A stretch of 64,000 nucleotides of DNA from Candidatus Latescibacterota bacterium (GTDB lineage Bacteria; Latescibacterota; UBA2968; UBA8231), in the NCBI GenBank assembly GCA_965203175.1, contig OZ241867.1, positions 4,450,733 through 4,514,732 of the forward strand, read 5' to 3'. Each line of letters starts with the position of its first letter. Position 1 is the stretch's first letter. Of this stretch, positions 21,714 to 62,538 are shown one piece after another. Made by a program: the position numbers and the translations under genes. A model generated the notes under the pieces. That model saw only the letters and a program-made list of their open reading frames with translations. It was not told the origin of the DNA and did not search any database.

Positions 21714-22874
21714 GTGCGACGCTACGAGCTGATCGAAGAGGAAGTGGCGGCGATACCGGCTGCCGAGCTTGCGGTCGAACAGGCCCTGCACCTGCACGCC
21801 CAATATCCAAAAGAGTTGGAGTTCGGTTTCCCCAGCCCGCTTAATGACCAGTGTTATCAGCTCAGGTCGCGGGGCTATGTCGGCGTGGTGCCTTTGGGCG
21901 CGAATGCCGCCCTGGAAATCACTCCCAAAATACGCTGCTCGCTGCTCATGCCCATGCTGGAGTATGCCTATCAGTTGCCCAAGATCAGCGCGCACAAGGC
22001 TCCGGCCACGATGGGGGATATCTACGAATTTTGGGCCGAGGTGCTCGCGCACAAGGTCTTACAACGGGTGCGGCGTGGGCTGTATTGGGATTACCAAACT
22101 CGCGAAGGTCTCAGTCGGTGGGTGCGAGGGCGCATGTACCCCGAGCGCAGCGGTCTAGGCGTCCATCCCTATTGTCGGTTTGCAGAGCACACGCCCGATA
22201 TTATCGACAACCGCATCTTGGCCAACGCGCTACATGGCCTGAGGCGCTTTGCCTTCCGCCGCGAGAGCGTTCGGCAGATGGTCGGTAGAGCTTGGAGGGC
22301 GCTGAGCGAGCTAAATTACCGCCACATTCGCCCCGTAGATTGCCTCGGCGTCGCGTATCACCGGCTAAACGAGGACTACCGACCCATGCATGCCTTGTGT
22401 TATTTCTTGCTCCAACAGCGAAGTCCGGCTTGGGGACTGGGAACCGAGGAAGGACCGGCATATCTGCTGCACATGCCGACTTTATTCGAGCGGTTTTGCA
22501 CAGCGTTTATCGACCACAAGCTCAACCACGAGGTCGAACTAAAAGCTCAGTACCACACGCGACTCAAGGGAACGGAGCGGTTTTCTTTTCGCTTGGACAT
22601 GGCTCTATTTTCGGCGGCAACCGGGCAGCCGCTGGCGGTGATAGATGCAAAGTACAAGGCCGATGGTCCCTCGGAAAACGATGTGCAGCAGGTGGTTGCC
22701 TATGCGGTTCAGTTAGGCACGCGTCGGGCCTTTTTGCTCTATCCTAGCAGCGATGTGGACGAGCAGTTCGAAGTCGGTCCAGTGGCCGTACAAGCGCTAG
22801 GGTACGATTTCGAAGCCGAAAATATAGAGAAAGCAGGCCAAGGCGTGATTCGTAAAATTGAAAATAGCATATAA
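21714..22874 (+). CDS. mcrC: McrC nuclease subunit (PD-(D/E)xK)
   Basis: Lies 3 nt after mcrB. IDAKYK motif near the C-terminus. GTG start. Confidence 0.85.
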   Translation: MRRYELIEEEVAAIPAAELAVEQALHLHAQYPKELEFGFPSPLNDQCYQLRSRGYVGVVPLGANAALEITPKIRCSLLMPMLEYAYQLPKISAHKAPATMGDIYEFWAEVLAHKVLQRVRRGLYWDYQTREGLSRWVRGRMYPERSGLGVHPYCRFAEHTPDIIDNRILANALHGLRRFAFRRESVRQMVGRAWRALSELNYRHIRPVDCLGVAYHRLNEDYRPMHALCYFLLQQRSPAWGLGTEEGPAYLLHMPTLFERFCTAFIDHKLNHEVELKAQYHTRLKGTERFSFRLDMALFSAATGQPLAVIDAKYKADGPSENDVQQVVAYAVQLGTRRAFLLYPSSDVDEQFEVGPVAVQALGYDFEAENIEKAGQGVIRKIENSI

Positions 22875-22908
22875 AAATTAATATGTAAATAAAATAAACA
22901 AAAAACTT

Positions 22909-40234: not shown

Positions 40235-40396
40235 ATGCCAAGTAAACTGAGTATTTTCTTTGAGTTATGGGATTTTATGAAGGTGCGCAAAAAGTGGTGG
40301 TTGGGGCCGATATTTGCCACTTTGATCCTGTTAGGGCTGTTAATTGTCACAACCCAAGGATCAGCAGTAGCCCCGTTTATTTACGCCCTGTTTTAA
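40235..40396 (+). CDS. 53-aa DUF5989-like small membrane protein
   Basis: MPSKLSIFFELWDFMKVRKKWWLGPIFATLILLGLLIVTTQGSAVAPFIYALF. Below the track cutoff. Confidence 0.6.
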   Translation: MPSKLSIFFELWDFMKVRKKWWLGPIFATLILLGLLIVTTQGSAVAPFIYALF

Positions 40397-40422
40397 GTCT
40401 TATAACATATAATATGTAAAAT
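40395..40422 (+). other. dif-like 11-6-11 site (copy a)
   Basis: AAGTCTTATAA-CATATA-ATATGTAAAAT. Fills the whole spacer between the DUF5989 stop and the apt ATG. Confidence 0.45.
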
Positions 40423-44229: not shown

Positions 44230-45163
44230 ACTGACTATTAAGGATCTGCTAGCTACCTACGGGCAGCAACTACGGCTGAAGCTCATCGCCGGTTCCGAAG
44301 GGGTACAGCGGACCATCAACAACAGCGACATCCACCGTCCTGGCCTAGCCCTGACGGGCTTCGTCGAGCTGTTTACCTTGGATCAAGTACAGCTCTTGGG
44401 CAATACCGAAGCGGAGTATCTGCGCAGCTTACCCCCAGACCGACGGCGGCAGGCCCTCAAAATCATATACCAATTCGATATTCCATGCGTGGTCTTGACC
44501 GGTAGGGGACGGGTGTACTCTGAGTTGCGGGAGCTAGCCGATGAGTGCGCGGTCCCACTGCTGAAGTCTGGATTCAACACGGCCGAGTTTACCCATCTCA
44601 TCCGCTTTTACCTCGACGAGGTGTTCTCGCCCCAAGTGTCCATGCATGGTACGTTGGTCGATGTCTCTGGAGTAGGGTTACTTTTTCGCGGCCGCAGTGG
44701 TATTGGCAAAAGCGAAGTCGCCTTGGATTTGGTCGAGCGCGGGCATCGGTTGGTGGCCGACGATGTGGTCATCATTAACCGCAAGCCCCAAGGCATTTTG
44801 GTGGGGTGTAGCTCGGAGATGCTCCAAGATCACATCGAAATTCGCGGCATCGGCATCCTAGACGTAAAAAAGATGTTTGGCGCGTGGAGGACTCGGCGGC
44901 AGAAGCGGGTGGAGGTATTGGTCAACCTCGTCGATTGGGACGAAAAATATGCCTACGAACGCCTTGGCCTCGAAGATAATAAAGTGGTAATCCTCGGTGT
45001 CGAGGTGCCCGAGGTCTTCATACCGCTATTTCCCGGTAAAAATATCACGGTACTCGCCGAGGCTATAGCGATAGATTATCTCTTGCGCTTGGACGGGGAT
45101 TACGCGGCACGGACATTTAGCCAGCGGCTCCAGGAGCGAATTAAGATGGGCAAAAAACCATGA
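44222..45163 (+). CDS. hprK: HPr kinase/phosphorylase
   Basis: GRSGIGKSE P-loop, IEIRGIGILD. ATG 44222 overlaps the rsgA stop. Confidence 0.92.
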   Translation: MNELTIKDLLATYGQQLRLKLIAGSEGVQRTINNSDIHRPGLALTGFVELFTLDQVQLLGNTEAEYLRSLPPDRRRQALKIIYQFDIPCVVLTGRGRVYSELRELADECAVPLLKSGFNTAEFTHLIRFYLDEVFSPQVSMHGTLVDVSGVGLLFRGRSGIGKSEVALDLVERGHRLVADDVVIINRKPQGILVGCSSEMLQDHIEIRGIGILDVKKMFGAWRTRRQKRVEVLVNLVDWDEKYAYERLGLEDNKVVILGVEVPEVFIPLFPGKNITVLAEAIAIDYLLRLDGDYAARTFSQRLQERIKMGKKP

Positions 45164-45960
45164 TGACGCTTGGCGTAGCAGGCCATGCCCTCGAGGTAGC
45201 CGTGCATCAGGATGCTTTGCAAAGCTGCGGCGATATTCAGTTCGTGCACCAATCTGATTGCGCTGCGGTCTTGGAAGAAAAAATAGACGGCCTGGTGATA
45301 TTGCACGTGGAAGACAAATCGCATTGGATAGGAGCGGCCGTGGCAGCCGGTCTTCACGTCATGGCCTCCCATCCCGTCCAGGAGCCGTTTGCAAACAGCC
45401 ATCCCAATGTGTGCGTGCTTTCACTGGGGAGGCATACGCACTTTTGCACAGCTTTGACCGCTCAGCAAGGGGTAGCGCATTACTCTCTAGAGCTTTCTTT
45501 TGCTTCGGCTCTATTCGATCCCATCAACCGCGATATGATCTACAACCAGGCGGCCTTGGACATATGCGACCTGTTGCTGAGCACTTGGGGACGGGTAGAT
45601 ATGCTGTACAGCAGGATGCGCAACTTTTTTCACCCTGGGCGCATGGAGGACGTGTCGATTGCGCTACTGAGGATGCGCAACGGAGTCGAAGGCTCGGTTT
45701 CATTCATGGACTTTCCGGCTGTGGCTCCGGCTTTGCGAGTCCGCTTGTATGCACAGGACGAAATGGTCGATACGTCTTGGCCTTGGGTGTGGGAAGCGGA
45801 CGATCTGGCGGCGTATTATCGCAATTTTGTCGCCTGTATCCAAGGACGAGCCCAACCGCTGTTGGATTTGGCACAGGTCGCTGAAAGCTATCGTCTCTTG
45901 GAATGGATGCGCATGTCGGCGAGGCAAGATATGGTTTTAAATCGCAAGCAAGTAAAATAA
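45160..45960 (+). CDS. divergent Gfo/Idh/MocA-like protein (no intact GxGxxG)
   Basis: Weak Rossmann-like N-terminus. Overlaps the hprK stop by 4 nt. Confidence 0.4.
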   Translation: MMTLGVAGHALEVAVHQDALQSCGDIQFVHQSDCAAVLEEKIDGLVILHVEDKSHWIGAAVAAGLHVMASHPVQEPFANSHPNVCVLSLGRHTHFCTALTAQQGVAHYSLELSFASALFDPINRDMIYNQAALDICDLLLSTWGRVDMLYSRMRNFFHPGRMEDVSIALLRMRNGVEGSVSFMDFPAVAPALRVRLYAQDEMVDTSWPWVWEADDLAAYYRNFVACIQGRAQPLLDLAQVAESYRLLEWMRMSARQDMVLNRKQVK

Positions 45961-45993
45961 AAAGTCTTATAAAATATTTTATGTAAACAAAAA
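45960..45993 (+). repeat. left copy of the perfect 34-bp inverted repeat; dif-like core 45962-45989
   Basis: AAAAGTCTTATAAAATATTTTATGTAAACAAAAA is the exact reverse complement of 49494-49527. Confidence 0.95.
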
Positions 45994-46000
45994 ATCTATA

Positions 46001-46525
46001 ATGAATACACCATCCTCACCACCTACATACTTCGCTCTTGGGTTGGCAAGCTTCTTGTTAGCAATTGTGTTATTGTTCAACATGCTCAGTCCTATGGCTG
46101 TGCCAGTTACCAGAGAGCAGTTCGATCAGATAAAAGAGGCCGATCTCATCGAGTCTCTGATTGTGCAACCCCGAGGATTTACTTGGCAACTCAAAAGGGC
46201 CGTGAGAGTCCAGGGGACCAACGGCGAGACACTAGCCAAGCGGGTCGCGCTAGTAGAGCCAGACCCAGCCGTAGGCGAAGATTGGCAACAAAAGGGAGGA
46301 GCGGTGCGCCACGAGCAAGATAACTCGTGGTGGGGTGGGGCAGTCTTCATCGCCTTGTTACTCGGCGTGGGGGGATGGCATATCTGGTCCCAAATACGGT
46401 TAGATCTCAAAGGGGGAGGGGGGCCGCGCCGCCGCTTGCGCGACCTGGAAACCGCGCTTAAACAAGGCAAAATTACCCAAGCCGAATTCCGGCAGCAGGC
46501 CGAGCGGCTCTGGGCCGAATTGTGA
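46001..46525 (+). CDS. two-TM membrane protein with a C-terminal SHOCT-like helix
   Basis: N-terminal TM, second TM, tail LRDLETALKQGKITQAEFRQQAERLWAEL. Confidence 0.65.
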   Translation: MNTPSSPPTYFALGLASFLLAIVLLFNMLSPMAVPVTREQFDQIKEADLIESLIVQPRGFTWQLKRAVRVQGTNGETLAKRVALVEPDPAVGEDWQQKGGAVRHEQDNSWWGGAVFIALLLGVGGWHIWSQIRLDLKGGGGPRRRLRDLETALKQGKITQAEFRQQAERLWAEL

Positions 46526-46531
46526 GGAGCT

Positions 46532-48322
46532 ATGGCGAGTACCATTCGCGTTCTCGACGAAAGTCTCATTGGAAAAATCGCCGCCGGTGAGGTAGTGGAG
46601 CGACCAGCTTCGGTCGTGAAGGAATTGGTCGAAAACTCGATCGATTCGGGTGCCGCTAAAATCCGCGTGGAAATCAAGGCCGGTGGCAAGCAGTCAATTG
46701 TCGTGACCGACGATGGTTCGGGCATGAACAGAGAGGATATCGCTTTGTGCGTGCGCCGGCACGCCACGAGTAAGATGGCCTCGGTAGCCGATCTGTTCTG
46801 CATTCAGACGCTGGGGTTTCGCGGCGAAGCCCTAGCTAGCATTGGTGCGGTAGCCCACTTGGCGATAGAATCACGTGCGAGGGAAGACGAAGCCGGAACG
46901 CGCTTGGTCGTGGAAGGGGGAATAGAGCGGGAGATGCACAGCATTGGCCGAGCGCGCGGCACAGCCATTGTAGTAAACAACCTGTTCTTTAATACGCCCG
47001 CGCGGCGCAAGTTTCTCCGGTCCGTCGATACGGAAGCTCGCCACGTGGCGCAGACCATAATTCATCTAGCCGCTGGCTACCCGGCCCTTGGCTTTGAACT
47101 AGAGCACCAAGATCGCCAAGTATTGAACTACGCCCCGGCGTCTCGTCGGGAGCGCGCGGCCGAGTTGCTGGGTGTTCCAGTCGCCAAACTGTTGGATCTC
47201 GCTCACGAGGAGGAGGGTCTCAAAATCGAAGGAGTCTTAGCCGGTCCCGAGCACTGCGGCCGGAGCAAGGGCAAGCAGTATCTCATCGTACAGGGGCGCC
47301 CCATCTCTTCGCGACTGATGGCCAGTGCTATACAGCGGTGTTTTGAGGGGCTGCTGCCCGAAGGGCGTCATCCAGTATTCATGCTCTGGATCGATATGGA
47401 TCCTAAGAAAATCGACGTCAACGTCCATCCGACGAAGCGGGAGATTCGCTTGGCCAACGAAGGGCAGGTCATCGCGGCTATTGAGAACAGCGTCCGGCAG
47501 AGCTTGCGCCTGCCCGATGTACAATCCTTTGTCTATGCTGCGGCTCCAATGCTGCGGCCGGACAGCACTCCTCGCTTCAGCGGGGACAGCAGTACTGCAG
47601 GTGGCGAGCCAATACCGGTGCGCGTGGGAGAACCAGCGTCACCGGTATTGCAAAGGATGCCTGCGTCCGGCGAGCCTGGGGTAGCGGCAACCCGTGATGC
47701 CGACGATCAGCTCGCCCTGACCTTCGTCGCTCCAGCCGTCAAACTCGCCGTCGCCGAAAACGCCGCGATGTGGCAGGTCCACAACCAGTATATCCTCGTC
47801 GAAGTAGCCGATGGCCTACTCTTCGTCGACCAGCAAGCTGCACACGAACGCATCAACTACGATCGGGCCATGGAGCAAATAGACGGCGTAGCCGGAGAAA
47901 GCCAGCAGTTGCTCTTTCCCATACAGCTAGAAATGGGCGCGGCGGATTTCGAGACCCTCAACCAAGTGCGGGACGATATTGCCAAGCTGGGATTTGTCGT
48001 GCGAGATTTTGGCGCGCGGACGGTGTTGGTGGAAGCTGTGCCGGCCGAATTGGATCGCTTTGGCGATGGCGATGTTTTTTATCAGCTATTGAACGACGTG
48101 CGCGATGCCCAGAATTCGGGCCGACCTTGGCGCGAAGCGCTCGTCTTAGCTTACGCGCGCAAAGCTAGTATCAAGAAAGGCCAGAAACTGAACTCCGAGG
48201 AAATGATACACTTAATCAACGAATTGCTAAAGGCCGACTCGCCGCACATAAGCCCAACGGACAAGCCGATTATGGCGAGGATGAAATTAAGCGATATGGA
48301 GCGTTTATTGCGGAGATTCTAG
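46532..48322 (+). CDS. mutL: DNA mismatch repair protein MutL
   Basis: GHKL ATPase motifs VVERPASVVKELVENSIDSGA, DDGSGM, GFRGEAL. 596 aa. Confidence 0.95.
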   Translation: MASTIRVLDESLIGKIAAGEVVERPASVVKELVENSIDSGAAKIRVEIKAGGKQSIVVTDDGSGMNREDIALCVRRHATSKMASVADLFCIQTLGFRGEALASIGAVAHLAIESRAREDEAGTRLVVEGGIEREMHSIGRARGTAIVVNNLFFNTPARRKFLRSVDTEARHVAQTIIHLAAGYPALGFELEHQDRQVLNYAPASRRERAAELLGVPVAKLLDLAHEEEGLKIEGVLAGPEHCGRSKGKQYLIVQGRPISSRLMASAIQRCFEGLLPEGRHPVFMLWIDMDPKKIDVNVHPTKREIRLANEGQVIAAIENSVRQSLRLPDVQSFVYAAAPMLRPDSTPRFSGDSSTAGGEPIPVRVGEPASPVLQRMPASGEPGVAATRDADDQLALTFVAPAVKLAVAENAAMWQVHNQYILVEVADGLLFVDQQAAHERINYDRAMEQIDGVAGESQQLLFPIQLEMGAADFETLNQVRDDIAKLGFVVRDFGARTVLVEAVPAELDRFGDGDVFYQLLNDVRDAQNSGRPWREALVLAYARKASIKKGQKLNSEEMIHLINELLKADSPHISPTDKPIMARMKLSDMERLLRRF

Positions 48323-48475
48323 TTTTCTATTTAATCTGGCCATGATACTAACGATAACAGGCATTATCAATAGTATAAAAACTAGGCGAATCCCTTGTGA
48401 AACGCGGCGGCAAAATTCCGCGATGTTCGCTATATTTGGGACATTAGACACCAATTAAGCCCCAGCGAGCATTTT

Positions 48476-49450
48476 ATGAGTCAGACACTCAATCCGGTCG
48501 TCCGCAGGCTAACGCCAACACCAGCGTTGGTAGCGGACGATCCTTTGGAACAATTTCTCAGTGGCCAACTCAGCGAGCGCACTCGGCGCGCTTATTACGC
48601 CGACCTCCAGCATTTCTTTTTTTCTATCGGCATGGAACTAAATGAAGTATCGCTCACCGTCTTGCAGTCAATCACCTTTGAGCACGTGGTCGCCTTTAGA
48701 AATCAGCTCGCCAGCGAAGGTTATAAGCGCAGCAGCATCAACAGAAAATTGTCCAGCCTGAAGTCGTTGTTCAAGATGCTGGTCGCCTTAGGTCACATCG
48801 AGAAGAATCCCGCTGACTCTACGTTGGTGCGCGGTTATAAAGTGGACGAAACCCTAGCTGGCAAGGCGCTTTCCAATCAGGTGCTGAACAAGATCCAGCA
48901 AGCCATTGCCGAGGAAAAAGACGATTTGGTTCGCACGCGCGATGCAGCCATGTTTCATTTGCTTACATTCGGCGGCCTGCGCCGCTCTGAAGTGGCTGGC
49001 ATCGCTTGGGAGGATATATCCTTGGAGGGCGTCTTTTATATCCTGCATCTCCCCGAGACTAAATCGGGCGTGGCGCAGGATATAAAACTGCAAAACGTCG
49101 TCCTGCATCATCTCGAATTATACAAAGAACAATTACAGGCGGCGGGCTTGCCGACGACTGGCAAGGTCTTCATCAGCCTGTCGCGCAACCAATCTCGCGG
49201 TCAGCCGCTGACTGACCAATCGGTAAATCACGTCGTTAAGAAGTACGCTATGCGCGCTGGCCTCCCCCAGAACGTCACCGCGCATATGTTCCGCCACACG
49301 TGCTGTACTCTGGCGATTGAAGGCGGAGCTAAGCCCCAGCAAGTGCAAGCCCATTTGCGCCACAAGGATCTAAAGACGACGATGCGTTACTACGAGAATC
49401 GCGAAAAGCTGCTCGATAATGCGTCTGATTACATTAATATTGGTAGTTGA
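48476..49450 (+). CDS. XerC/XerD-family tyrosine recombinase
   Basis: Catalytic pattern GLRRSE ... HMFRHT ... LRHKD ... MRYY. 324 aa. Looks AT-richer than its neighbours. Confidence 0.9.
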   Translation: MSQTLNPVVRRLTPTPALVADDPLEQFLSGQLSERTRRAYYADLQHFFFSIGMELNEVSLTVLQSITFEHVVAFRNQLASEGYKRSSINRKLSSLKSLFKMLVALGHIEKNPADSTLVRGYKVDETLAGKALSNQVLNKIQQAIAEEKDDLVRTRDAAMFHLLTFGGLRRSEVAGIAWEDISLEGVFYILHLPETKSGVAQDIKLQNVVLHHLELYKEQLQAAGLPTTGKVFISLSRNQSRGQPLTDQSVNHVVKKYAMRAGLPQNVTAHMFRHTCCTLAIEGGAKPQQVQAHLRHKDLKTTMRYYENREKLLDNASDYINIGS

Positions 49451-49493
49451 TGTTTTTTGTTTTGTAGGCGGATTTTTTTCTTCGGCTTCTTTC

Positions 49494-49527
49494 TTTTTGT
49501 TTACATAAAATATTTTATAAGACTTTT
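49494..49527 (-). repeat. right copy of the 34-bp inverted repeat; dif-like core 49498-49525
   Basis: TTTTTGTTTACATAAAATATTTTATAAGACTTTT. Lies 48 bp after the recombinase stop and 20 bp from the leuS stop. Confidence 0.95.
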
Positions 49528-49544
49528 AAGGTTTGTATTGATTT

Positions 49545-52430
49545 CTATACCACAATATTGACAATTTTATTCGGTACCCATATAAACCGCTTTATCGCCG
49601 CTTCATCGGCTACGTATTTCTGAATGCTCTCCATGTCGAGCACCAAGGACTTTATCTCTTCCTCTCCAGTGCGAACCGGTACTTCGACTTGTCCGCGCAT
49701 TTTGCCGTTGACCTGAATAGGCACTACGATCATGTCCTCGGCGGCCTTGGCAGCATCCCAGTCAGGCCAGTTCTGACGACTGAGGTCTCCTCTCCCAAAG
49801 CCCGCCATTTCCCATAGCTCCTCGGCAATATGCGGAGCAAAGGGCGCGAGCAGGTTCAAGAAAGGCTTGGCAACAGCCTGCGGTACTTCGCCTAAGGACA
49901 CCAACAGGTTATTTAACTCGATCAAGGCGGCAATAGCCGTATTAAACCGCAGCCCCTCTATATCCTCAGTTACCTTTTGAATGGTTTGGTGCAGCTTTCT
50001 TTCTAGCTCCGGTGCCAACGCAGCGCTCTCCCCTATTCTCACACGTCGATCTGAATCGACAAAGTTGCGCCACACGCGCTGTAAGAAGCGCTGCATCCCG
50101 CGAATGCCTTCCATGCTCCACGGCGCACTCGCTTCGAGCGGCCCCATGTACATTTCGTACAACCGCAAGGTATCCACGCCAAACTCCTCGCCGACTTCTT
50201 CGGGCGGTAGCCCGTTTTTGTAGCGTTTACCCATCTTGCCAGAAGAACGGTGCAGCGTCTTCCCTGTCTCCTTCTCAACAGGCTCCCCGTCGCGGAACTC
50301 AACCTCGCGGATGTCGATATACACGCCGCGGTCGTCCTGAAAGGCATCTGCGGTCATCATGCCTTGGTTAAACAGCTTCTTAAACGGCTCGGGGGTAGAT
50401 ACGTGGCCTAAGTCATAGAGGGCCTTGTGCCAAAACCGAGCGTAGAGCAAGTGCAACACAGCGTGTTCAGCGCCGCCGATGTAGAGATCGACGGGCATGA
50501 AGTAGCCCTCCTTAGCCAAGTCGCAGAAGGCTTCTTCGTTGTGCGGATCAATAAAACGGAGATAGTACCAGCAAGAACCGGCCCATTGGGGCATGACGTT
50601 GAGTTCGCGCTGGCAGGCTATTCCGTCAATTTCCACCGTCGTCCACTCCGCTCCGGCCCGGTGCAGCGGCGGCGAAACGGGTTGAGTGGGATCGTCGGAG
50701 GTCTCCGGCCTAAAATCTTCTAGGTCCGGCAGCGCCACTGGAGGCCCAACCGCAACAGAATATCCATCAGGATGCGTAGCCAGTGGAAAGGGTTCGCCCC
50801 AATAGCGCTGTCGAGCAAAAGTCCAGTCGCGCAGTTTGTAGTTTACTGCAGCTTGGCCTCGCCCCTCGGCGACTAGTGCGGCGACGATCTGGGATTTGGC
50901 CACGGCCGTCGCCAATCCGTTAATGGCGTATGGATTATCGCCGCCCAGTACTGGAGGCGAGTTGATGGCGGTTCCCTCCCCGGTATACCACCCTTCGACC
51001 TTTCCTTCCCCTCCAGTAACTACCTTCACAATGTCCAAGTTATAGGCGGTGGCAAAGGCGAAATCGCGCTCGTCGTGAGCCGGCACCGCCATAATGGCCC
51101 CCGCGCCGTAATCCATGCTGACGTAGTCGGCGACGAAAATGGGGATTTTTTGTCCATTGACTGGATTGCGGGCGTAGATGCCGGAGAAAATGCCCGTTTT
51201 TTCTTTGGTCTCATCCGCAGTGGAGACAGCAACCTGCGCTATGTACTGGGCTATAGCTTCCCGGATGGATCCCCCTCCTCCCTTCCACTGATCCGGCGTC
51301 CCGTCGGGCCAAGCACTGGGAACCAAATAGGCTTCCTCGGCCGGGTCCACCAGCGGATGCTGAGGGGCAAGGGCCATAAAGGTCGCTCCAAAGAGCGTAT
51401 CGGGGCGGGTTGTGAACACGAGCAACTGCCCGGCGACCGCGTCGCTTTGCGGGTCGAGGACATCAAAGCACACTTCAGCTCCTTCGCTGCGACCAATCCA
51501 GTTGCGCTGCATCCGTTTGATCGGTTCTGGCCAATCGAGCCGGAAGGACGCGCCGTTGCGGTCCTCCAGTTCAAAGTCCAAGTCCTCTAAGAGCCGCTCG
51601 GCGTAGGCTGTTATACGCATCGTCCATTGTCGCAACGGTTTGCGGTATACGGGAAAATCTCCCCGCTCGCTGCGGCCTTCGTTGGTTACCTCCTCGTTGG
51701 CCAACACAGTGCCCAAGCCGGGACACCAGTTGACGACGGCCTCTTGCTGGTACGCCAGCCGGTAGTTGTTCAGCACGGTTTGACGCTCGGCCGCAGTTAG
51801 TGCGGACCAGGCTTTATCAGTGCCAAGAACTTGACGGCCTGCTGCCGACAAAGCCCTGCCCGCCGCAAATTGGGCCTCTAAGTCGGCGATGGGCTTAGCC
51901 CGTCCCTTTATTTGGCGTCCATTGCCGTCTTCCCAGATCTCGTCTTCGTCGAAATAACTATCGAATAGCTGGGTGAAAATCCACTGAGTCCAGCGGTAGT
52001 ACGACGCCCGCGACGTGACCACTTCGCGGGCCCAATCAAACGAGAGTCCAAGAAACTGCAATTGGCTGCGCATCGCATCGATATTCTGCTCTGTTACAGC
52101 CGCTGGATGGATGTTGTGTTCGATCGCGTATTGCTCGGCCGGCAAGCCAAAACTGTCGAACCCCATCGGATGCAGGACGTTAAATCCCTGCATCCTTTTG
52201 TAGCGACTGTAGATGTCGCTGGCGATATACCCCTTGGGATGGCCGATGTGCAGCCCTGCTCCGCTTGGATAGGGAAACATATCAAGGATGTAGCACTTTG
52301 GTTTGTTGTGGTCGAAACCGCGGTCTCCCGGCCCCAGTGTTTGATAGGTCTTTTCTTGCTCCCAATGGGACCGCCATTTGGTTTCGATGGCTTGAAAATT
52401 GTATTGGCCTTTTTTTGTTTTGATTGACAT
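49545..52430 (-). CDS. leuS: leucyl-tRNA synthetase
   Basis: HIGH (GLHIGH) and KMSKS-like (GKMGKR) motifs, 961 aa. Confidence 0.96.
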   Translation of the reverse strand: MSIKTKKGQYNFQAIETKWRSHWEQEKTYQTLGPGDRGFDHNKPKCYILDMFPYPSGAGLHIGHPKGYIASDIYSRYKRMQGFNVLHPMGFDSFGLPAEQYAIEHNIHPAAVTEQNIDAMRSQLQFLGLSFDWAREVVTSRASYYRWTQWIFTQLFDSYFDEDEIWEDGNGRQIKGRAKPIADLEAQFAAGRALSAAGRQVLGTDKAWSALTAAERQTVLNNYRLAYQQEAVVNWCPGLGTVLANEEVTNEGRSERGDFPVYRKPLRQWTMRITAYAERLLEDLDFELEDRNGASFRLDWPEPIKRMQRNWIGRSEGAEVCFDVLDPQSDAVAGQLLVFTTRPDTLFGATFMALAPQHPLVDPAEEAYLVPSAWPDGTPDQWKGGGGSIREAIAQYIAQVAVSTADETKEKTGIFSGIYARNPVNGQKIPIFVADYVSMDYGAGAIMAVPAHDERDFAFATAYNLDIVKVVTGGEGKVEGWYTGEGTAINSPPVLGGDNPYAINGLATAVAKSQIVAALVAEGRGQAAVNYKLRDWTFARQRYWGEPFPLATHPDGYSVAVGPPVALPDLEDFRPETSDDPTQPVSPPLHRAGAEWTTVEIDGIACQRELNVMPQWAGSCWYYLRFIDPHNEEAFCDLAKEGYFMPVDLYIGGAEHAVLHLLYARFWHKALYDLGHVSTPEPFKKLFNQGMMTADAFQDDRGVYIDIREVEFRDGEPVEKETGKTLHRSSGKMGKRYKNGLPPEEVGEEFGVDTLRLYEMYMGPLEASAPWSMEGIRGMQRFLQRVWRNFVDSDRRVRIGESAALAPELERKLHQTIQKVTEDIEGLRFNTAIAALIELNNLLVSLGEVPQAVAKPFLNLLAPFAPHIAEELWEMAGFGRGDLSRQNWPDWDAAKAAEDMIVVPIQVNGKMRGQVEVPVRTGEEEIKSLVLDMESIQKYVADEAAIKRFIWVPNKIVNIVV

Positions 52431-52449
52431 AATTATCCTTATAAGACAT
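52422..52449 (-). other. dif-like 11-6-11 site (copy c)
   Basis: On the minus strand: ATGTCTTATAA-GGATAA-TTATGTCAATC. Spans the whole asnS-leuS spacer plus leuS codons 1-3. Confidence 0.4.
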
Positions 52450-53754
52450 TTATGGATAGAGGCGTTGCATCATGCGCGGAAATGGAATGCTCTCGCGCAC
52501 GTGCTTGACGCCACACAACCAAGCGACCACCCGCTCGATTCCCATGCCAAAGCCAGCGTGTTCAACCGAGCCGTAGCGCCGCAAGTCGAGATACCAGCTA
52601 AAGGCTTCCTCGGGCAACTGGTGCGTGGCAATTTTGTGCTGCAAGACGACAAGATCGTCTTCGCGTTGCCCGCCCCCAATGATTTCCCCATACCCTTCGG
52701 GTGCCAACAGGTCCATACACAGGGCCAAGCGGCGATCTTGGGCATCTTCCTTCATGTAGAATGCTTTGACTGCACTGGGATAGCGATGGACAAAAACCGG
52801 CACCTCGAACTCAGAGGCAAGGAGGGTTTCGTCGTCCCCACCCAGATCACTCCCCCATTTGATGTCGCTACCGAGGGCTGTCAAGCGCTCGACGGCTTCA
52901 TCATAGGTCAGGCGCGGAAAGGGCCGGCTGACCTGTTCCAGCTTGGTAGTATCTCGTTCGAGCAGCTTTAGCTCTTCGCGGCGGCGGGCGAGCACGCGGT
53001 CAAGCACGTACAAGACCATGTCCTCGGCCAAAGCCATGGCACCCTCCAAATCGCAATACGCCATCTCCGGCTCGATCATCCAGAACTCGGTCAAGTGCCG
53101 GCGGGTTTTGGACTTTTCAGCACGGAACGTCGGGCCAAAACAATAGACCTTGCCTAAGGCCATGGCGGCCGCTTCCATATAGAGCTGACCGCTCTGAGTC
53201 AAATAAGCCGTGTCGTCGAAATACGCGGTCTCAAATAGGGTCGAGGTCCCCTCACAGGCTGCGGGCGTAAAAATCGGTGCATCCACGAGGACAAAGTCGC
53301 GCTCTTCCATGAAGTCGCGGCAGGCCTTGCCGATTTCGCTGCGGATCTTGAGAATGGCCCCAGGCCGCATGGAACGCAGCCATAAATGGCGGTGGTCGAG
53401 GAGAAAGGACACCCCGTGTTCCTTAGGTGTGATGGGATATGGTTCGGCCTCCTGCACGACTTCGAGATCGCTGACCCCCACCTCATAGCCAATAGGTGCG
53501 CGCTCTTCCCGCCGTACTTGGCCGTGGACTACGAGCGAAGATTCTTGCGGCAAGTGATCGCACCGCTCGAATAGCTCTGACTCGACATCCCCTTTAAAAA
53601 CAACGCATTGTACCACGCCGCTACCATCGCGCAGTTGCATAAAATGCAGCTTGCCGCTCGAGCGCTTGTTGTACAACCAACCGCGCAGCACCACTTCTCG
53701 GCCTTCATAGCGGCCGATATCAGCCACCTGAATCGACTCCATTTCCTTATCCAT
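52450..53754 (-). CDS. asnS: asparaginyl-tRNA synthetase
   Basis: [21 protein letters not shown] and class II motif 3 GFGMGIER. Confidence 0.93.
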
Positions 53755-53770
53755 ACACCATTATATAATA

Positions 53771-53799
53771 AGAAAAGACTATCGAGATAGACTCGATAG
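53771..53799 (-). terminator. terminator after pnp
   Basis: CTATCGAG / CTCGATAG stem, then TCTTTTCT on the minus strand. Confidence 0.6.
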
Positions 53800-53829
53800 C
53801 CTTCTCATCCTGTGGCTCAAGACCGGCAC

Positions 53830-55899
53830 CTACTTCTTTAGCAGGGCCTTGTGGCTGAGCCGCATCTTGCCGCCGGTGTCGATTTCAAGGACTTTGACGG
53901 CGATCGTGTCCCCTTGACCAACGACGTCTTCGACCTTGTCCACACGCCGATGTGCCAGCTCGGAGATGTGCAACAAGCCCTCTTTCCCAGGCAGAATCTC
54001 GACGAAGGCCCCAAAGGGCATGACCCGCTTGACCACCCCGTCATATTCCTTGCCCACCTCGGCGTCAGCGGTAATTCCCTTGATCATGCGCCGAGCTTCT
54101 TCGGCTGGGCCAGCTTCAACCGAAGCAATGGTAATCGTGCCGTCTTCGTCGACATTGACCGTGGCACCGGTCTTTTCGATCTCGCGGATGGTCTTGCCGC
54201 CTGGGCCGATGACCGCGCCGATTTTGCCCTGATCAATCTTGACAAACTCAATGCGCGGTGCCCAGCGCGAAAGCTCGGGCCGCGCCTCGTTCAGGCATTC
54301 ATCCATAATGGCCAAGACTTTGTCGCGCCCCTCCTTGGCGCGGTCTAGGGCTTCCTTGAAAATGTCTAGCTGCAAGCCCTGGATTTTTATATCCATCTGG
54401 ATCGCGGTAATCCCGTCCTTGGTGCCAGCGACCTTGAGATCCATGTCGCCGAGAAAATCTTCGGCGTCGCGGATGTCGGTCAGCAGCTCGTACTCATCCC
54501 CTTCCTTGACTAAGCCTACGCCCGTGCCGCACACCGCGGTTTTAACGGGAATTCCGGCGTCCATCAAGGCGAGGGAGCAGCCACACACCGTGGCCATGGA
54601 GCTAGAGCTACTCGACTCGGTAATATCGGATACCAACCGAATTGTGTAGGGAAAGGATTCGACCGATGGAATGACCGGCTCTAAGGCGCGCTCGGCCAGA
54701 TGGCCATGGCCGATGTCCCGCCGTCCCGGACCGCGCTCAAAGCGCACTTCGCCGACCGAATAGGGGGGGAAGTTGTAATCCAAGTAATAGGACTTAAACC
54801 GCTTGCCCTGTAGGTCGTCGGCCATTCGCTCGTCGAGCTTGGTGCCCAGCGTCGCCACGCAGAGCGCTTGCGTCTGCCCGCGGGTAAACAGCGCCGAGCC
54901 GTGCGTCCGCGGCAGTACGGTGCTCTCGCAGGTGACGTCGCGCACCGCGTCGAGCGCGCGGCCGTCAATGCGCCGCTTCTCCTTGAGGATCAGGGTGCGC
55001 ATGTCGGCCTTGAGCAGCGCCTCCAGCTCGTCCTTGATCAGCTTTTCAGACTCTGGAAAGCGTTCGGCTAGGCTCTCCAAGACATCGGCATTAATCGCGT
55101 CGATGCGCTCTTGCCGCTCTTCTTTGAGCGGGCTTCTATTGGCCTCGGCGATCCGCTCTTGCGCCAACTCGGCAACGGCATGGACCAGTGCAGGATCGAC
55201 TTGCTCGACCTCGATGGCAATCTTCTCCTTGCCGACTTCGGAGACGAGTTGCTCCTGTAGCTGGACCAACTCGGCGATGCACTCGTGGCCAAAGGCCAAT
55301 GCATCCACCAGATCTTGCTCGGCAATCTCGTGGGCACCCCCTTCGACGCTGACGATGGAATCGGCCGTGCCGCAGACTATGATTTCGAGATCGGAATCAT
55401 CTAGCTCGGCAAGGGTCGGATTGGCGACGAACTCGCCGTTGATGCGCCCGACCCGCACGGCTCCCATAGGGCCAGCAAAGGGAATGTCGGATATACTCAG
55501 GGCCGCCGAGGCCCCAATTAAACCCAAGACCTCGGCGTCGTTTTCTCCGTCGTACGAAAGCACCGAAACATAGACTTGGATCTCATAAGGGAACTTCTTG
55601 GGAAACATCGGCCGAATGGGGTGATCTATTAACCGAGCACTCAGGGTCTCCTTCTCGGAGGGACGCCCTTCGCGCTTGAAGATGTTGCCTGGTATCTTGC
55701 CACCAGCGTAGGCCTTTTCCCGGTAATCTACGATCAAGGGCAAAAAACCTCGGTCCTCCGGGGTGTTGGTTCGGCAGGCCGTGACCAGCACTACGGTCTC
55801 TCCGTATTGCATCCACACGGCCCCATTGGCTTGCTTGGCGATTCTGCCTGTTTCAATCGACAGATTCCGCCCGCCTATTTCGCGTTCGAGTTTAGTCAT
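53830..55899 (-). CDS. pnp: polyribonucleotide nucleotidyltransferase
   Basis: Two RNase PH domains plus KH and S1, 689 aa. Confidence 0.96.
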   Translation of the reverse strand: MTKLEREIGGRNLSIETGRIAKQANGAVWMQYGETVVLVTACRTNTPEDRGFLPLIVDYREKAYAGGKIPGNIFKREGRPSEKETLSARLIDHPIRPMFPKKFPYEIQVYVSVLSYDGENDAEVLGLIGASAALSISDIPFAGPMGAVRVGRINGEFVANPTLAELDDSDLEIIVCGTADSIVSVEGGAHEIAEQDLVDALAFGHECIAELVQLQEQLVSEVGKEKIAIEVEQVDPALVHAVAELAQERIAEANRSPLKEERQERIDAINADVLESLAERFPESEKLIKDELEALLKADMRTLILKEKRRIDGRALDAVRDVTCESTVLPRTHGSALFTRGQTQALCVATLGTKLDERMADDLQGKRFKSYYLDYNFPPYSVGEVRFERGPGRRDIGHGHLAERALEPVIPSVESFPYTIRLVSDITESSSSSSMATVCGCSLALMDAGIPVKTAVCGTGVGLVKEGDEYELLTDIRDAEDFLGDMDLKVAGTKDGITAIQMDIKIQGLQLDIFKEALDRAKEGRDKVLAIMDECLNEARPELSRWAPRIEFVKIDQGKIGAVIGPGGKTIREIEKTGATVNVDEDGTITIASVEAGPAEEARRMIKGITADAEVGKEYDGVVKRVMPFGAFVEILPGKEGLLHISELAHRRVDKVEDVVGQGDTIAVKVLEIDTGGKMRLSHKALLKK

Positions 55900-55952
55900 T
55901 AGATATATCTTTCGCTCTTTCCTTTGAGGTTTTGAAATTCGCTCAGTACGAG

Positions 55953-56225
55953 CTAACGGCGCAACCCAAGCTCGCGGATCAACGCCGCATACGCCTGCGG
56001 GTTTTTCTTTAGGTAGTAGCTTTGTAATCGCCTCCTTTTGCCTATGAGTACGAGTAATCCCCGCCGCGTGGCAAAGTCCTTTTCCTGGTCTTTGAGATGT
56101 TCGGTCAGGTTCTCGATGCGCTCGGTGAGAATGGCAATCTGTACCGGGGTGGCCCCAGGGCCGCCTTCTTGGCCAAATTTCTCGATCAGTTCTTTCTTGC
56201 GCTCAGTTGTTATTGACACCTTCAA
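55953..56225 (-). CDS. rpsO: 30S ribosomal protein S15
   Basis: 90-aa S15 pattern (...DFATRRGLLVLIGKRRRLQSYL). Confidence 0.95.
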   Translation of the reverse strand: MKVSITTERKKELIEKFGQEGGPGATPVQIAILTERIENLTEHLKDQEKDFATRRGLLVLIGKRRRLQSYYLKKNPQAYAALIRELGLRR

Positions 56226-56641
56226 CCTCCGTATTTCGCGCCACGCTTTCCGCCTTCAGCACTGGAGACGAACAGGGCACGTGCTTGGTGAATGTCTCTG
56301 CGGATCTGCCCTACCAGCTCATCTGGACAGGCAAATGCGCGTTGTTTTCGCAACTTCTTTATAAGGGCGACCTGGAGCGTTTGTCCGTAGAGATCGCCAG
56401 CAAAATCGAGTATGTGCAACTCGATGACTAGGGCTGCTTCGGCGAATGTGGGCCGAGGGCCGATGTTGGCCACAGCCTGCAAAACCCCACTTCCGGGGTA
56501 TTGCACCTCGGCGGCAAAGACTCCCTGAGGCAAAGACTGATCGCCGTGGGGCAGCAAATTCGCCGTGGGAAACCCCAAAGTTCTTCCGCGTCCTTGTCCT
56601 CTCGTGACGCGACCAGAAAAATGAACGCTAGCCCATTCCAT
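56222..56641 (-). CDS. stand-alone riboflavin kinase domain (RibF C-terminal half only)
   Basis: GRTLGFPTANL, IGPRPTF, ELHILDF. No room or frame for the FMN-adenylyltransferase half. Confidence 0.8.
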   Translation of the reverse strand: MEWASVHFSGRVTRGQGRGRTLGFPTANLLPHGDQSLPQGVFAAEVQYPGSGVLQAVANIGPRPTFAEAALVIELHILDFAGDLYGQTLQVALIKKLRKQRAFACPDELVGQIRRDIHQARALFVSSAEGGKRGAKYGG

Positions 56642-57538
56642 CTAGGGTTGGCGCAAAACGCACAGGGGCCGCAGCGCCCCCTGCTCCCACCGCGCGAGGC
56701 CAAACAAGGTTTCTGCGTCGTCAAAAACCGCGCAGACCTCGCGCGGCCCTGCACCAGCCGGATGCTCGATCGCTTTTCCATGGGCGAAATCGACCAGCTT
56801 GCCCTCGTTCAGCTCGACGGTGGTTAGCTCACTCAGCGCTAGCCGCGGATGGACGAGGGCTTTTTCAATTTGTCCCACTCTACTGAGGCTTGCTACTTGC
56901 TCCAACGTCAGAGCTTTGTCCAGCCCAAGACCACCGGCGCGCAGCCGGCGCAACTCAGCCAAATAGGCACCGCACCCCAGGGTACGCCCCAAATCAGCGG
57001 CTAATGAACGAATGTACGTTCCCGCAGAGCAATGGATTCTCACACCTAGTCTGGGAAAATCGTAGCTGAACATCTCCATTGCGTGGATGTGAACTCGGCG
57101 GGATTTGAGGACGACCTCATCCCCGCGACGCGCCCGCTTGTACGAGCGCACCCCAGCTACCTTTACCGCTGAATGCGCCGGCGGCACTTGGTCTATGACA
57201 CCCGTAAAATCGCGCAGGGCTTGGACCACGCTGAGCTTATCGGGAGACTCGCAGTCCGCTTGGTGCCGAATCGGGCCTTCAGCATCGCCCGTAGCACTTA
57301 CAGCTCCCAGATAAATCTCGGCCTCGTATTCCTTATCCGCACCGCTGAGCCACCGGTTGAGACGGGTATAGCGTCCCAAGCAAACGACCAAGACGCCGCT
57401 GGCCAAAGGGTCAAGCGTACCGCAGTGACCAATGCGCTGCAACTGCAATAGGCGCCGGAGAGAGACGATTACGTCGTGGGAAGTGGGGCCTTTGGCTTTG
57501 TCGATGACCAAAACCCCGCTCAAGGACGGATCAGCCAT
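56642..57538 (-). CDS. truB: tRNA pseudouridine-55 synthase
   Basis: HCGTLDPLASGVLVV. ATG 57538 preferred over GTG 57550. Confidence 0.92.
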   Translation of the reverse strand: MADPSLSGVLVIDKAKGPTSHDVIVSLRRLLQLQRIGHCGTLDPLASGVLVVCLGRYTRLNRWLSGADKEYEAEIYLGAVSATGDAEGPIRHQADCESPDKLSVVQALRDFTGVIDQVPPAHSAVKVAGVRSYKRARRGDEVVLKSRRVHIHAMEMFSYDFPRLGVRIHCSAGTYIRSLAADLGRTLGCGAYLAELRRLRAGGLGLDKALTLEQVASLSRVGQIEKALVHPRLALSELTTVELNEGKLVDFAHGKAIEHPAGAGPREVCAVFDDAETLFGLARWEQGALRPLCVLRQP

Positions 57539-57884
57539 GCTGCGCTCCACCGAGACTATCGATCAGGGCTGTGACGCGCGCGGCGCGCTCGGTGGTATCG
57601 TCGTATGCAACCCGCAACTGAGGTGCGTAACGCAAGCGCATGCGCCGGGCGATTTCTCGACGTATAAAACCCAAGCCCCGGTGCATTCCTTGGAGTACCT
57701 GCTCTTTGTCGTCTGCGTTACCGAGCGTGCTGACAAAGATCGTGGCATAGCTCATGTCGGCGGAGAGTTCCACATCCACTACTTGGACTAGTTGCAGCCT
57801 CGGATCCTTCATCCGCCCTAGGATGTCGGTCAACTCGCGCAGCAACTGTCCGCGCACTCGGCTAATTCGTTGTGGGGAGGCCAC
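57531..57884 (-). CDS. rbfA: ribosome-binding factor A
   Basis: RVRGQLLRELTDIL..., 117 aa, GTG start, canonical operon position. Confidence 0.9.
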   Translation of the reverse strand: MASPQRISRVRGQLLRELTDILGRMKDPRLQLVQVVDVELSADMSYATIFVSTLGNADDKEQVLQGMHRGLGFIRREIARRMRLRYAPQLRVAYDDTTERAARVTALIDSLGGAQHG

Positions 57885-57890
57885 CTGCGT

Positions 57891-58172
57891 TTAGTGTACT
57901 TCCATTTGATAGTCGAGAATATGCACCCGGGGATCGCCTTCGACGAAGTTGACGATTTTAGTCAGCATCTCGTCGCAGTGTTCAACGGCCGAACTCACCA
58001 CGGCAACCCCCAGCACCGCCCGCTGCCAAAGCGCATGGTCATCTACTTCGGCCACAGCCGCGTTAAAGCGGTTGCGGATGCGCCCCTTAAGGCTATTGAG
58101 GACTTGCCGCTTGTCTTTGAGCGAATGGCTATCACCGATATAGATTTGCACCGCACAGCTCATAACGATCAA
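57891..58172 (-). CDS. DUF503 (YlxP-like) protein
   Basis: SLKDKRQVLNSLKGRIRNRFN pattern, located between infB and rbfA. Confidence 0.8.
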   Translation of the reverse strand: MIVMSCAVQIYIGDSHSLKDKRQVLNSLKGRIRNRFNAAVAEVDDHALWQRAVLGVAVVSSAVEHCDEMLTKIVNFVEGDPRVHILDYQMEVH

Positions 58173-58188
58173 AACAAATCAACCGCCT

Positions 58189-60546: not shown

Positions 60547-60560
60547 AACTATTCCCTCAG

Positions 60561-61943
60561 CTACTTGGCCCTCTGGTCTGCCTCATCTTCTCCATCCGTG
60601 CCCGCAACAGGCAGGGCAAACACCTCTTTCCCTTCTTGCTCAGCCACCTCTTCCCTTTCGGCAGCGACCAAAGCCTCGATATCCACCTCGCCGTGTTCGG
60701 CAAGATACGCTGCCGCTGCTGCCTTTACTGCGTGGGCAGTTTCGGCCATTTCTAGGCCCGGTACGGTCTGTAATAGCTCCGGGTCGGCTTCGGCGACCGA
60801 GGCAATGGAGTCGAAACCGGACGTAGTCAAGCTCAGGGCAATCAGCTCGCTAATGCCATCTATCTGGCGGAATACTTGCTGGTACTTCTCCTGCTTGGCC
60901 CGGCGCTCTTGGTATTGTTCATCAGTGATGATATCGAGCCCCCAACCCGTGAGTTGACTGGCTAGTTTTGTATTTTGACCGCCTTTGCCAATGGCCAGCG
61001 ATAGCTGTTCCTCTTCGACAATCACGATGGCGTGCCGGCGGCGCGAATCCGTGATGCAGCGCACCACAGTAGCCGGACTTAGTGCCCGGCTTATGAATAT
61101 ATCCGGCTCGTCGATCCAAGGAACGATATCTATGCGCTCACCGCTCAATTCCCTAACGATGGCTTGGACCCGCGATCCCTTCACCCCCACACAGGCCCCC
61201 ACCGGATCGACTCGTTCATCGCTGCTGCTAACCGCGATCTTTGCTCGCTCGCCTGGCTCGCGGGCCACGCCGTGAATCTCGACGATGCCCTCGGCTATCT
61301 CCGGTACTTCTGTGGCAAAGAGCTTCCTGAGAAATTCGGGCCGCGTGCGGGAGAGCAAGACCTGAGGCCCCCGGCTCGACTTAAGCACTTCATATATATA
61401 GCCTCGCACGGCATCACCTTGGCGATAGCGTTCGCGGCGGATTTGCTCTTTGTATGGAACGGCCGCCTCGGCCCGGCCGAGATTGAGGACGATGTCTCCG
61501 TGGCTAATCTGCTGTACGGTACCGGATTCGACGAGGCCGACCCGGCCGATAAATTCGTCGTATATTCGCTCTCGCTCGGCTTCGCGGACCCGCTGAATGA
61601 GAATTTGCTTTGCAGTCTGTATGGCGTTGCGGCCAAAGTCGGCGAAATTGAGTTGCTGCACTAGCACAGAGCCTAGTTGGACATGGGGGTCGATGTCGCG
61701 GGCGTCGGCGAGGAGAATCTCCATGGACGGCTCAACCACTTCTTCGACGACAGTCTTGCGGGCATACACGGCCATCTTGCCTTGAGCCGCATCGATGTCA
61801 ACTTCGTAATTTTCGGTATTGCCGTAGTGCCTTTTGGCGGCTGAAATGAGGGCGTCGGCGAGGGTCTGCACCACTAATTCCCGGTCGACGTTTTTTTCGC
61901 GGGCAATCTGCCCCAAGGCTTCGACAATATTCGCGTTGTTCAT
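60561..61943 (-). CDS. nusA: transcription termination/antitermination factor NusA
   Basis: S1 and two KH domains plus C-terminal HhH repeats. 460 aa. Confidence 0.95.
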   Translation of the reverse strand: MNNANIVEALGQIAREKNVDRELVVQTLADALISAAKRHYGNTENYEVDIDAAQGKMAVYARKTVVEEVVEPSMEILLADARDIDPHVQLGSVLVQQLNFADFGRNAIQTAKQILIQRVREAERERIYDEFIGRVGLVESGTVQQISHGDIVLNLGRAEAAVPYKEQIRRERYRQGDAVRGYIYEVLKSSRGPQVLLSRTRPEFLRKLFATEVPEIAEGIVEIHGVAREPGERAKIAVSSSDERVDPVGACVGVKGSRVQAIVRELSGERIDIVPWIDEPDIFISRALSPATVVRCITDSRRRHAIVIVEEEQLSLAIGKGGQNTKLASQLTGWGLDIITDEQYQERRAKQEKYQQVFRQIDGISELIALSLTTSGFDSIASVAEADPELLQTVPGLEMAETAHAVKAAAAAYLAEHGEVDIEALVAAEREEVAEQEGKEVFALPVAGTDGEDEADQRAK

Positions 61944-61967
61944 ATTTTTACTCGACCTTCACTCAAG

Positions 61968-62420: not shown

Positions 62421-62440
62421 ACGCGCTTTCCCCCTTAATA

Positions 62441-62463: not shown

Positions 62464-62538
62464 CCAACTTGGGTTATAAAATATAGGATTATATTGATTT
62501 AGGCAAGACGACTTAACAGCCTTGGCCAAATGCCAACG

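Follow-up and report, generated by a model that had tools for sequence, protein, structure and literature searches.

The 64,000-nt stretch analyzed here (the window), from a Candidatus Latescibacterota bacterium (GenBank assembly GCA_965203175.1, contig OZ241867.1, positions 4,450,733 to 4,514,732 of the forward strand), carries a 3.5-kb segment in which the genes for a predicted membrane protein (memb), MutL, and an Xer-family tyrosine recombinase (xer) are bracketed by two inverted copies of a 28-bp dif-type site. The segment lies at the replication terminus, the linkage of the recombinase gene to the site extends throughout the phylum, and the segment has inverted repeatedly among close relatives, with breakpoints in the sites. 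The reading that we favor, with a probability of roughly three in four, is that the locus is a terminus Xer/dif module in which the dif-type site has been duplicated in inverted orientation and occasional intramolecular recombination flips the enclosed segment. The features on which the argument turns are given below, in positions of the window; orientations A and B of the segment and the position weight matrix (PWM) used for scoring the sites are defined further on.

45160..45960, + strand: orf266, which closes the left flank prs-mpe-rsgA-hprK-orf266 (mpe, metallophosphoesterase); next to it lies memb (orientation A) or xer (orientation B)

45960..45993, + strand: left (memb-side) dif-type site, with its 28-bp core at 45962-45989; PWM score 50 bits; inversion breakpoint in relatives

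46001..46525, + strand: memb, a predicted membrane protein of 174 amino acids and the first gene of the invertible segment, from open reading frame (ORF) and domain search

46532..48322, + strand: mutL, intact and full length (TIGR00585, 479.8 bits versus a cutoff of 180)

48476..49450, + strand: xer, an Xer-family tyrosine recombinase of 324 amino acids (Phage_integrase and SAM_1 domains)

49494..49527, - strand: right (xer-side) dif-type site, with its core at 49498-49525; identical to the left site when reverse-complemented

49545..52430, - strand: leuS, which closes the right flank pnp-asnS-leuS; next to it lies xer (orientation A) or memb (orientation B)

The sequence at 45960-45993 (AAAAGTCTTATAAAATATTTTATGTAAACAAAAA) is the exact reverse complement of that at 49494-49527, with a match at 34/34 positions. 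The 28-bp core has two matches in the 64-kb window at up to three mismatches and none in 100 shuffles, which confirms the claim of the first-pass annotation, made by a model from the sequence alone, that the repeat is not due to chance. The core has an 11-6-11 layout (AAGTCTTATAA-AATATT-TTATGTAAACA). In the left copy the outer arm faces orf266 and the inner arm faces memb, the ATG of which is 11 nt past the core; in the right copy the outer arm faces leuS and the inner arm faces the xer stop codon. The adjacency of the recombinase gene to the right copy was annotated correctly, but the distance of 48 bp was not, since the stop codon (49450) is 43 nt from the 34-bp repeat and 47 nt from the 28-bp core. 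Perfect identity over 34 bp turned out to be peculiar to the window genome, while in the other 22 close genomes the paired sites differ at 1 to 10 of the 28 positions, mainly in the center. An exact 28-mer scan of metagenome contigs for same-species junction variants gave no matches.

The core was compared with experimentally confirmed dif sites as quoted in Kono et al. 2011 (PMC3025954). It is identical to the Bacillus subtilis dif at 21 of 28 positions (10/11 in the right arm) and to the Escherichia coli dif at 16 of 28 (8/11 in the right arm); both the E. coli sequence and the 8/11 figure had been quoted correctly in the annotation. In a distant relative (L029; the L codes are labels of related loci), the site next to xer comes even closer to the E. 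coli dif, at 22/28 positions, including all six of the TGTATA center. A PWM built from 59 sites has near-invariant arms (GTCYTATAA / TATGTAAA) and a variable center consisting of A and T only. In the 25 closest genomes the motif stands, inverted, on both sides of memb-mutL-xer, with the arm consensus A-W-G-T-C-Y-T-A-T-A-A … W-T-A-T-G-T-A-A-A-Y-A. The pattern of conserved arms around a variable center holds across 23 genomes and, with the similarity to the B. subtilis dif, bears out the initial description of an Xer-type 11-6-11 site.

The recombinase carries Phage_integrase (97.6 bits) and Phage_int_SAM_1 domains (Pfam), and the closest solved structure by sequence is that of E. coli XerD (PDB 1a0p, E=1.3e-17). 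Its scores are far below the equivalog cutoffs for XerC (TIGR02224, 130.7 versus 335.15 bits) and XerD (TIGR02225, 121.1 versus 329.6 bits), as well as the NCBIfam equivalog cutoffs for XerS (84.6 versus 267 bits) and XerA (110 versus 220 bits), which places it in an Xer-like family of its own. A protein search with the 324-residue sequence returned more than 120 clusters at 60 to 92% identity; the assembly index has no entry for the window's own Xer protein. The family is Latescibacterota-wide, its members being 58 to 97% identical, and the candidate catalytic residues R169, K196, H270, R273, H296, and Y305/Y306 are invariant in a 33-member alignment. A search for a second tyrosine recombinase, which covered the window and 1.78 Mb of DNA near the terminus (156 sequences), found none.

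A scan of species-representative genomes gave 60 loci, all of them from metagenome-assembled genomes (MAGs) of Latescibacterota (WS3), many of which are complete chromosomes; a metagenome scan gave 80 further loci with the same picture. The gene order is conserved phylum-wide, running …prs-mpe-rsgA-hprK-(orf266)-(memb)-mutL-xer on one side of the xer-side junction and leuS-asnS-pnp on the other. In most of the distant lineages a dif-like site occupies the xer-leuS spacer, and its left arm is often GCGCATAA or GCCGCATAA, as in classical dif. An inverted pair around xer is frequent across the phylum, with mutL inside the bracket in some clades only. In L024, L025, L026, L036, L053, L058, L073, L074, L075, and L077, the second inverted site immediately precedes xer, and the bracket thus holds xer alone; the left partner site is upstream of mutL in L028 and L034 and upstream of orf266 in L051, L066, and L133.

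Some of these loci show variant arrangements. In L038 and L112, about 20 to 100 nt downstream of xer, two head-to-head dif-like sites stand at a distance of ~25 bp, without an intervening gene (in L112 at 6926 on the + strand and 6976 on the - strand), which is the opposed pair at its most compact. In L025 the flip relative to mutL is confined to xer, which lies between sites at 9548 (+) and 10931 (-) (region 9548-10960); leuS is absent from its place next to asnS and xer, and a further site is found ~10 kb off, at 20608 (-); this layout suggests a larger site-associated rearrangement. In L054 (5547-6660 and 8650-9690) and L018 (8090-9960), extra genes for leucine-rich-repeat/ankyrin-repeat proteins lie inside the invertible segment; such proteins are eukaryote-like repeat proteins often seen in symbionts. 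A mobile cassette, including an integrative mobile element exploiting Xer (IMEX), was considered for the segment and ruled out by the conserved synteny, the additional DNA of L018 and L054 consisting of these repeat-protein genes and not of integrative-element genes.

The position of the locus on the chromosome is indicated by its strand composition and gene orientation.

47500..49000, no strand: reversal of the GC (guanine-cytosine) skew (cumulative maximum) coinciding with gene convergence, interpreted as the replication terminus

From position 1 to ~48,000 the skew is positive, and beyond that, to 64,000, it is negative, with the cumulative maximum inside the cassette. Of 38 related loci of full length, 34 have the same switch from + to - skew at xer. 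The left flank lies on the + strand and the right flank on the - strand, so that both converge on the segment; the gene map thus agrees with the annotation of two co-directional flanking operons reading inward (hprK side +, leuS side -). Since the sign change of the skew and the convergence of genes coincide at the cassette, the locus marks the replication terminus, where a dif-type site would be expected; this point is absent from the first-pass annotation, and the inverted pair is therefore most likely to represent the chromosome's own dif sites. In the textbook account of Xer/dif, in which chromosome dimers are resolved, mostly with FtsK in control, there is one dif per chromosome; the window holds two identical inverted copies and three weaker dif-like sites. 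The FtsK-orienting polar sequence (KOPS) consensus of E. coli, GGGNAGGG, points toward the cassette in all of its occurrences in the window (11:0; 9:0 in 1-45959 and 2:0 in 49528-64000) and at a ratio of 82:1 in the close clade, the genomes of which are not independent. This skew is not stronger than that of composition-matched words, which are themselves about 80% polarized, and in the distant lineages the two values are the same (77% versus 77%).

We next turn to the inversion of the memb-mutL-xer segment. Loci were oriented by xer and assigned to orientation A when the hprK side adjoins memb or to orientation B when the leuS side does. Among 23 close genomes, 13 (the window included) have orientation A and 10 have orientation B. 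On a neighbor-joining tree built from seven flanking housekeeping proteins only (3,242 columns), this distribution requires at least six independent flips (Fitch minimum), and orientation differs within three sister pairs (L013/L014, L007/L008, and L004 versus L010/L046). In whole-locus BLASTN comparisons, this segment is exactly what sets apart genomes that are ~96 to 97% identical at the nucleotide level; the alignment blocks overlap by only ~40 bp at each site, and in the junction alignments the flank changes at the site. When 46 sites were analyzed position by position, the association with flank identity ended at -2 and that with the cassette end began at +34, while positions inside the site were tied to neither; the exchange lies somewhere within the site. 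A finer placement of the crossover, on one side of the center, was tried and rejected: three sister pairs keep the center and the inner arm with the cassette, and the 46 sites show no such tie. Site-mediated inversion over an evolutionary timescale is well supported by these data, and the invertible segment proposed in the first-pass annotation has held up in both its orientations and its breakpoints.

The two sites within a genome differ slightly less from each other than do sites taken from different genomes (4.04 versus 4.80 differences, P=0.004). Their centers are identical in 6 of the 23 genomes and all 28 positions in the window genome only, a perfect identity that would be accounted for most simply by a recent sequence exchange or conversion between the sites. 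In sister pairs that differ by a flip, the two sites share no identical stretch longer than ~12 bp. This length is too short for efficient RecA-dependent exchange, which favors site-specific over homologous recombination.

The same annotation had proposed that a flip would swap the read-through context of mutL or uncouple it, so that the segment could be a reversible mutator or phase-variation switch in which frequent flips within a population turn mutL expression up or down. The arrangement has some of the properties expected of such a switch: in this clade mutL lies between inverted sites and next to the gene of a resident recombinase, both orientations are found in nature, and the 40-nt orf266-memb gap leaves no room for a separate upstream promoter, so that memb-mutL transcription probably depends on the upstream flank. 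Because both flanks converge on the segment, however, memb-mutL has a co-directional housekeeping operon upstream in either orientation, and the operon at the xer end is always convergent. The two states are structurally equivalent, neither of them is "off," and the flip neither connects nor disconnects a promoter or a coding part. Furthermore, the bracket holds xer only in distant lineages, with mutL outside. Contigs with identical Xer from independent samples show one orientation each (P0121, 4/4 A; P0122, B in all that could be resolved of 8; P0123, 3/3 A), as judged from consensus assemblies, which cannot reveal minor subpopulations. We therefore consider a mutL switch very unlikely.

Two further observations concern this proposal. 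A Logan contig of 3480 nt (SRR16351692_43684, L150) comprises memb-mutL-xer only, starting 16 nt before the memb-side site and ending a few nucleotides before the xer-side site. It could reflect a break in an assembly graph that branched where orientations were mixed, or simply poor coverage of AT-rich DNA; its ends are asymmetric within the sites, which speaks against the former, and we take it as a weak hint of mixed orientations. The SpyCIM1 element, which enters and leaves the mutS-mutL region and thereby interrupts expression, had been cited as a precedent for mutL control but does not apply, and control of this type was ruled out: mutL is full length and uninterrupted, and no phage-like genes were found within the segment.

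Besides the inverted pair, the window contains three dif-like sites farther out.

22864..22891, + strand: dif-like site ATAGCATATAAAAATTAATATGTAAATA; PWM score 31 bits; in a convergent intergenic gap

40395..40422, + strand: outer dif-like site AAGTCTTATAACATATAATATGTAAAAT; PWM score 46 bits; between the stop codon of a 39-codon ORF and the apt ATG

52422..52449, - strand: weaker dif-like site ATGTCTTATAAGGATAATTATGTCAATC; PWM score 24 bits; fills the asnS-leuS junction and is conserved in the close clade

The close clade likewise retains the 40395-type site, at a distance of ~5.56 kb from the inner site on the hprK side, and both this site and the asnS/leuS-type site move with their flanks in the close-clade loci. 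All five sites of the window point toward the cassette, those at 22864, 40395, and 45962 being on the + strand and those at 49498 and 52422 on the - strand. The apt start codon overlaps the right arm of the 40395-type site, and the leuS ATG is inside the right arm of the 52422 site.

Overlaps of this kind, together with the location of the sites directly between stop and start codons and that of the left site 11 nt upstream of the memb ATG, would be expected if the motif were an expression signal, such as a promoter, an operator, or an AU-rich leader. In another form of this explanation, the inversions would be due to RecA-dependent recombination between short repeats and not to the recombinase. 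No sigma-70-like promoter or intrinsic terminator consensus was detected on the sites, RNA folding gave z values of -0.4 to +0.7, and Rfam returned no matches at E<=1. The xer-side copy, moreover, faces no downstream gene, and conserved arms with a variable center and 21 to 22 of 28 positions identical to confirmed dif sites form the pattern of a recombinase target. As the identical run in the flipped sister genomes is also too short for efficient exchange by RecA, neither form of this explanation appears to us credible.

In the Xer/dif module that we favor, a lineage-specific Xer-family recombinase is encoded beside a 28-bp dif-type site where the replichores meet, and a second, inverted copy of the site lies beyond the recombinase gene, in this clade past mutL and memb. 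The resident recombinase, alone or with a partner, would bind both sites, its main job probably being chromosome-dimer resolution between sister copies. Now and then the two inverted copies within a chromosome would recombine with each other and so flip the 3.5-kb segment. Such a flip would be nearly neutral, because the flanks converge and either orientation keeps the genes co-directional with replication and with the upstream operon, and orientation would drift between species. The uniform orientation among contigs with identical Xer fits rare, nearly neutral inversions, and so do two variant genomes. In L016 (10960-11030) the xer-side site is lost altogether, and in L009 (11010-11040; the same as L146) the xer-side site has a 7-nt center (ATGTCTTATAA-AATGTTA-ATATGTAAACA). 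Both have orientation A and may be "locked," and given this loss and this variant, one site is enough for viability.

Several points weigh against this reading. The site is as asymmetric as the dif sites used by two recombinases, which hints at a partner recombinase, and a canonical XerC/XerD pair or another dif could reside elsewhere in the genome. The outer sites occupy tight stop-to-start junctions, which would also fit an expression-related element. If inversion is a neutral by-product, the persistence of the second site, in 24/25 close genomes and with recurrence across the phylum, is left unexplained. Finally, the two centers differ by 1 to 5 nt in most genomes, and differing centers hinder complete exchange in classical tyrosine recombination. 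Since so many genomes have differing centers, some of the flips may have occurred by a single strand-pair exchange completed by replication, a route described for the integration of CTX phage (PMC3442271).

The outer sites raise the further possibility that all of the sites, paired and outer, form a selected terminus architecture, in which polar Xer sites serve FtsK activation, SMC unloading, or fork arrest and inversion is a side effect. Ter sites (Tus-Ter and RTP-Ter) are polar and opposed across the terminus, with the gene of the protein alongside. Extra sites in the terminus region bound by XerD (XDS) unload SMC in B. subtilis (Karaboja 2021, as cited in PMC11894783). XDS and Ter are the nearest analogies to the sites found here, several of which cluster at the terminus, three on the + strand to the left and two on the - strand to the right, a pattern repeated in the close-clade loci; their polarity, however, is inseparable from gene direction, as the flanking genes also all point to the terminus. 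The common direction of the five window sites, the conservation of the 40395-type and asnS/leuS-type sites that travel with their flanks in the close clade, the recurrence of inverted pairs around xer in the phylum, and the head-to-head sites ~25 bp apart in some lineages all speak for selection. Apart from the confounded polarity, the KOPS-type skew no stronger than in composition-matched controls, the dispensability of the pair in L016 (without a second inner site) and L009 (with its 7-nt center), and a lone xer-adjacent site of opposite polarity in some distant lineages speak against it, and we regard such an architecture as unlikely.

A related proposal is that the pairing itself is functional, so that the locus would represent an undescribed terminus architecture, with an Xer gene kept inside opposed dif sites and further polar Xer sites on each replichore. 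One site would then be oriented for FtsK, SMC, or forks coming from either arm, or the recombinase would autoregulate, and flipping would be a by-product. We hold this to be conceivable, if doubtful; if true, it would overturn the view that a chromosome tolerates one dif only.

We then compared the locus with described Xer systems. In the single-recombinase modules XerS/difSL of streptococci and lactococci and XerH/difH of Helicobacter and Campylobacter, the recombinase gene adjoins dif at the terminus and is inherited with it as a module, according to PMC5357621. Here, too, xer adjoins its site, and does so phylum-wide, and in this linkage the earlier comparison with these two systems is supported. 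The site, however, has the classical 28-bp 11-6-11 layout instead of the 31 bp of difSL with its 11-bp center, the protein falls outside the families of XerS and XerH, and the gene lies between two inverted copies of the site. With the classical XerC/XerD-dif system (E. coli, and CodV/RipX-dif of B. subtilis) the locus shares the 28-bp layout, the inner ATAA/TTAT dyad, an XerD-type right arm, and the location at the terminus; it differs in that the recombinase is neither an XerC nor an XerD equivalog and in that two inverted copies plus extra sites are present instead of one.

Inversion by Xer-like proteins also has precedents. Xer1 of Mycoplasma is an Xer-like recombinase that acts as an invertase. 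XerC at the mba locus of Ureaplasma is described as an Xer-like invertase as well (PMC3599477, PMC3047005). As in these two cases, an Xer-family gene here lies beside short inverted repeats whose segment inverts. Those two systems, however, switch the expression of surface antigens and have no connection with dif or the terminus, and the present locus gives no sign of an expression switch. Two opposed dif sites at the terminus were reported, as the only such case known, for Lactobacillus delbrueckii ssp. bulgaricus by El Kafsi et al. 2017 (PMC5345009), who state that an opposed layout should yield inversion instead of resolution. Their opposed sites lie in inverted repeats of 38 to 76 kb, are reported to be absent from all 1,373 other chromosomes, and are presented as the decaying scar of a chromosome rescue. 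In the locus described here, in contrast, the 28-bp site alone is repeated, the copies are 1 to 3.5 kb apart around xer, the arrangement is found phylum-wide, and the flips are recurrent. In the pdif modules of Acinetobacter plasmids, genes are bracketed by inverted XerC/D-type sites, and inversion and shuffling have been reported (PMC13141974, PMC5790767). These modules are mobile, accessory, plasmid-borne, and dependent on the host XerCD, while the segment studied here is chromosomal and fixed and comprises housekeeping genes with their own recombinase; its content and position are constant across the phylum, and the suggestion of a pdif-module-like cassette was accordingly dropped. In the library searched, we found no literature on Xer/dif of Latescibacteria or on dif-bracketed xer genes.

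These results describe an uncultivated phylum that has, at the terminus, a divergent Xer gene between two opposed dif-type sites, and they define the dif site and the terminus of Latescibacterota genomes. The flips, at least six of them and clean, among relatives near the species level amount to a natural experiment, and the locus offers a system for asking how dimers are resolved with opposed sites, how site polarity relates to FtsK, SMC, or forks, and how recombination proceeds between differing centers. The differences in orientation among MAGs at this locus are real and not misassemblies, and an attractive claim, that of a mutL phase switch, is removed as unsupported.

Of the minor observations, two concern the gene content of the segment. 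The three genes named in the first-pass annotation are indeed inside the bracket, but the SHOCT tail ascribed to the membrane protein is not, no SHOCT domain being detected in memb by Pfam, where the sole match, to GvpG, was below threshold. The GC content of the segment is like that of its surroundings, except in intergenic DNA and across xer, where it is somewhat lower. Several MAGs (L003, L021, L022, L026, L028, L039, L045, L046, and others) are titled Gemmatimonadetes, Gemmatimonas phototrophica, or Magnetovibrio and yet have the Latescibacterota-type synteny and Xer; their taxonomic labels or binning may be wrong. A group of marine metagenome contigs (L115-L135) encodes a separate group of recombinases, ~42% identical to the Xer of the window, which share the HLRHKDLK/FRHTCCTL motifs and lie in a different gene context; in two of them (L117 and L118) a common dif-like motif (GTGCARAATATGACGACTATGTAATYA) is present ~470 nt downstream. 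Elsewhere in the window, a trio of tRNA genes (Arg-CCG, Pro-GGG, and Pro-CGG) is located at 30682-30988 on the + strand.

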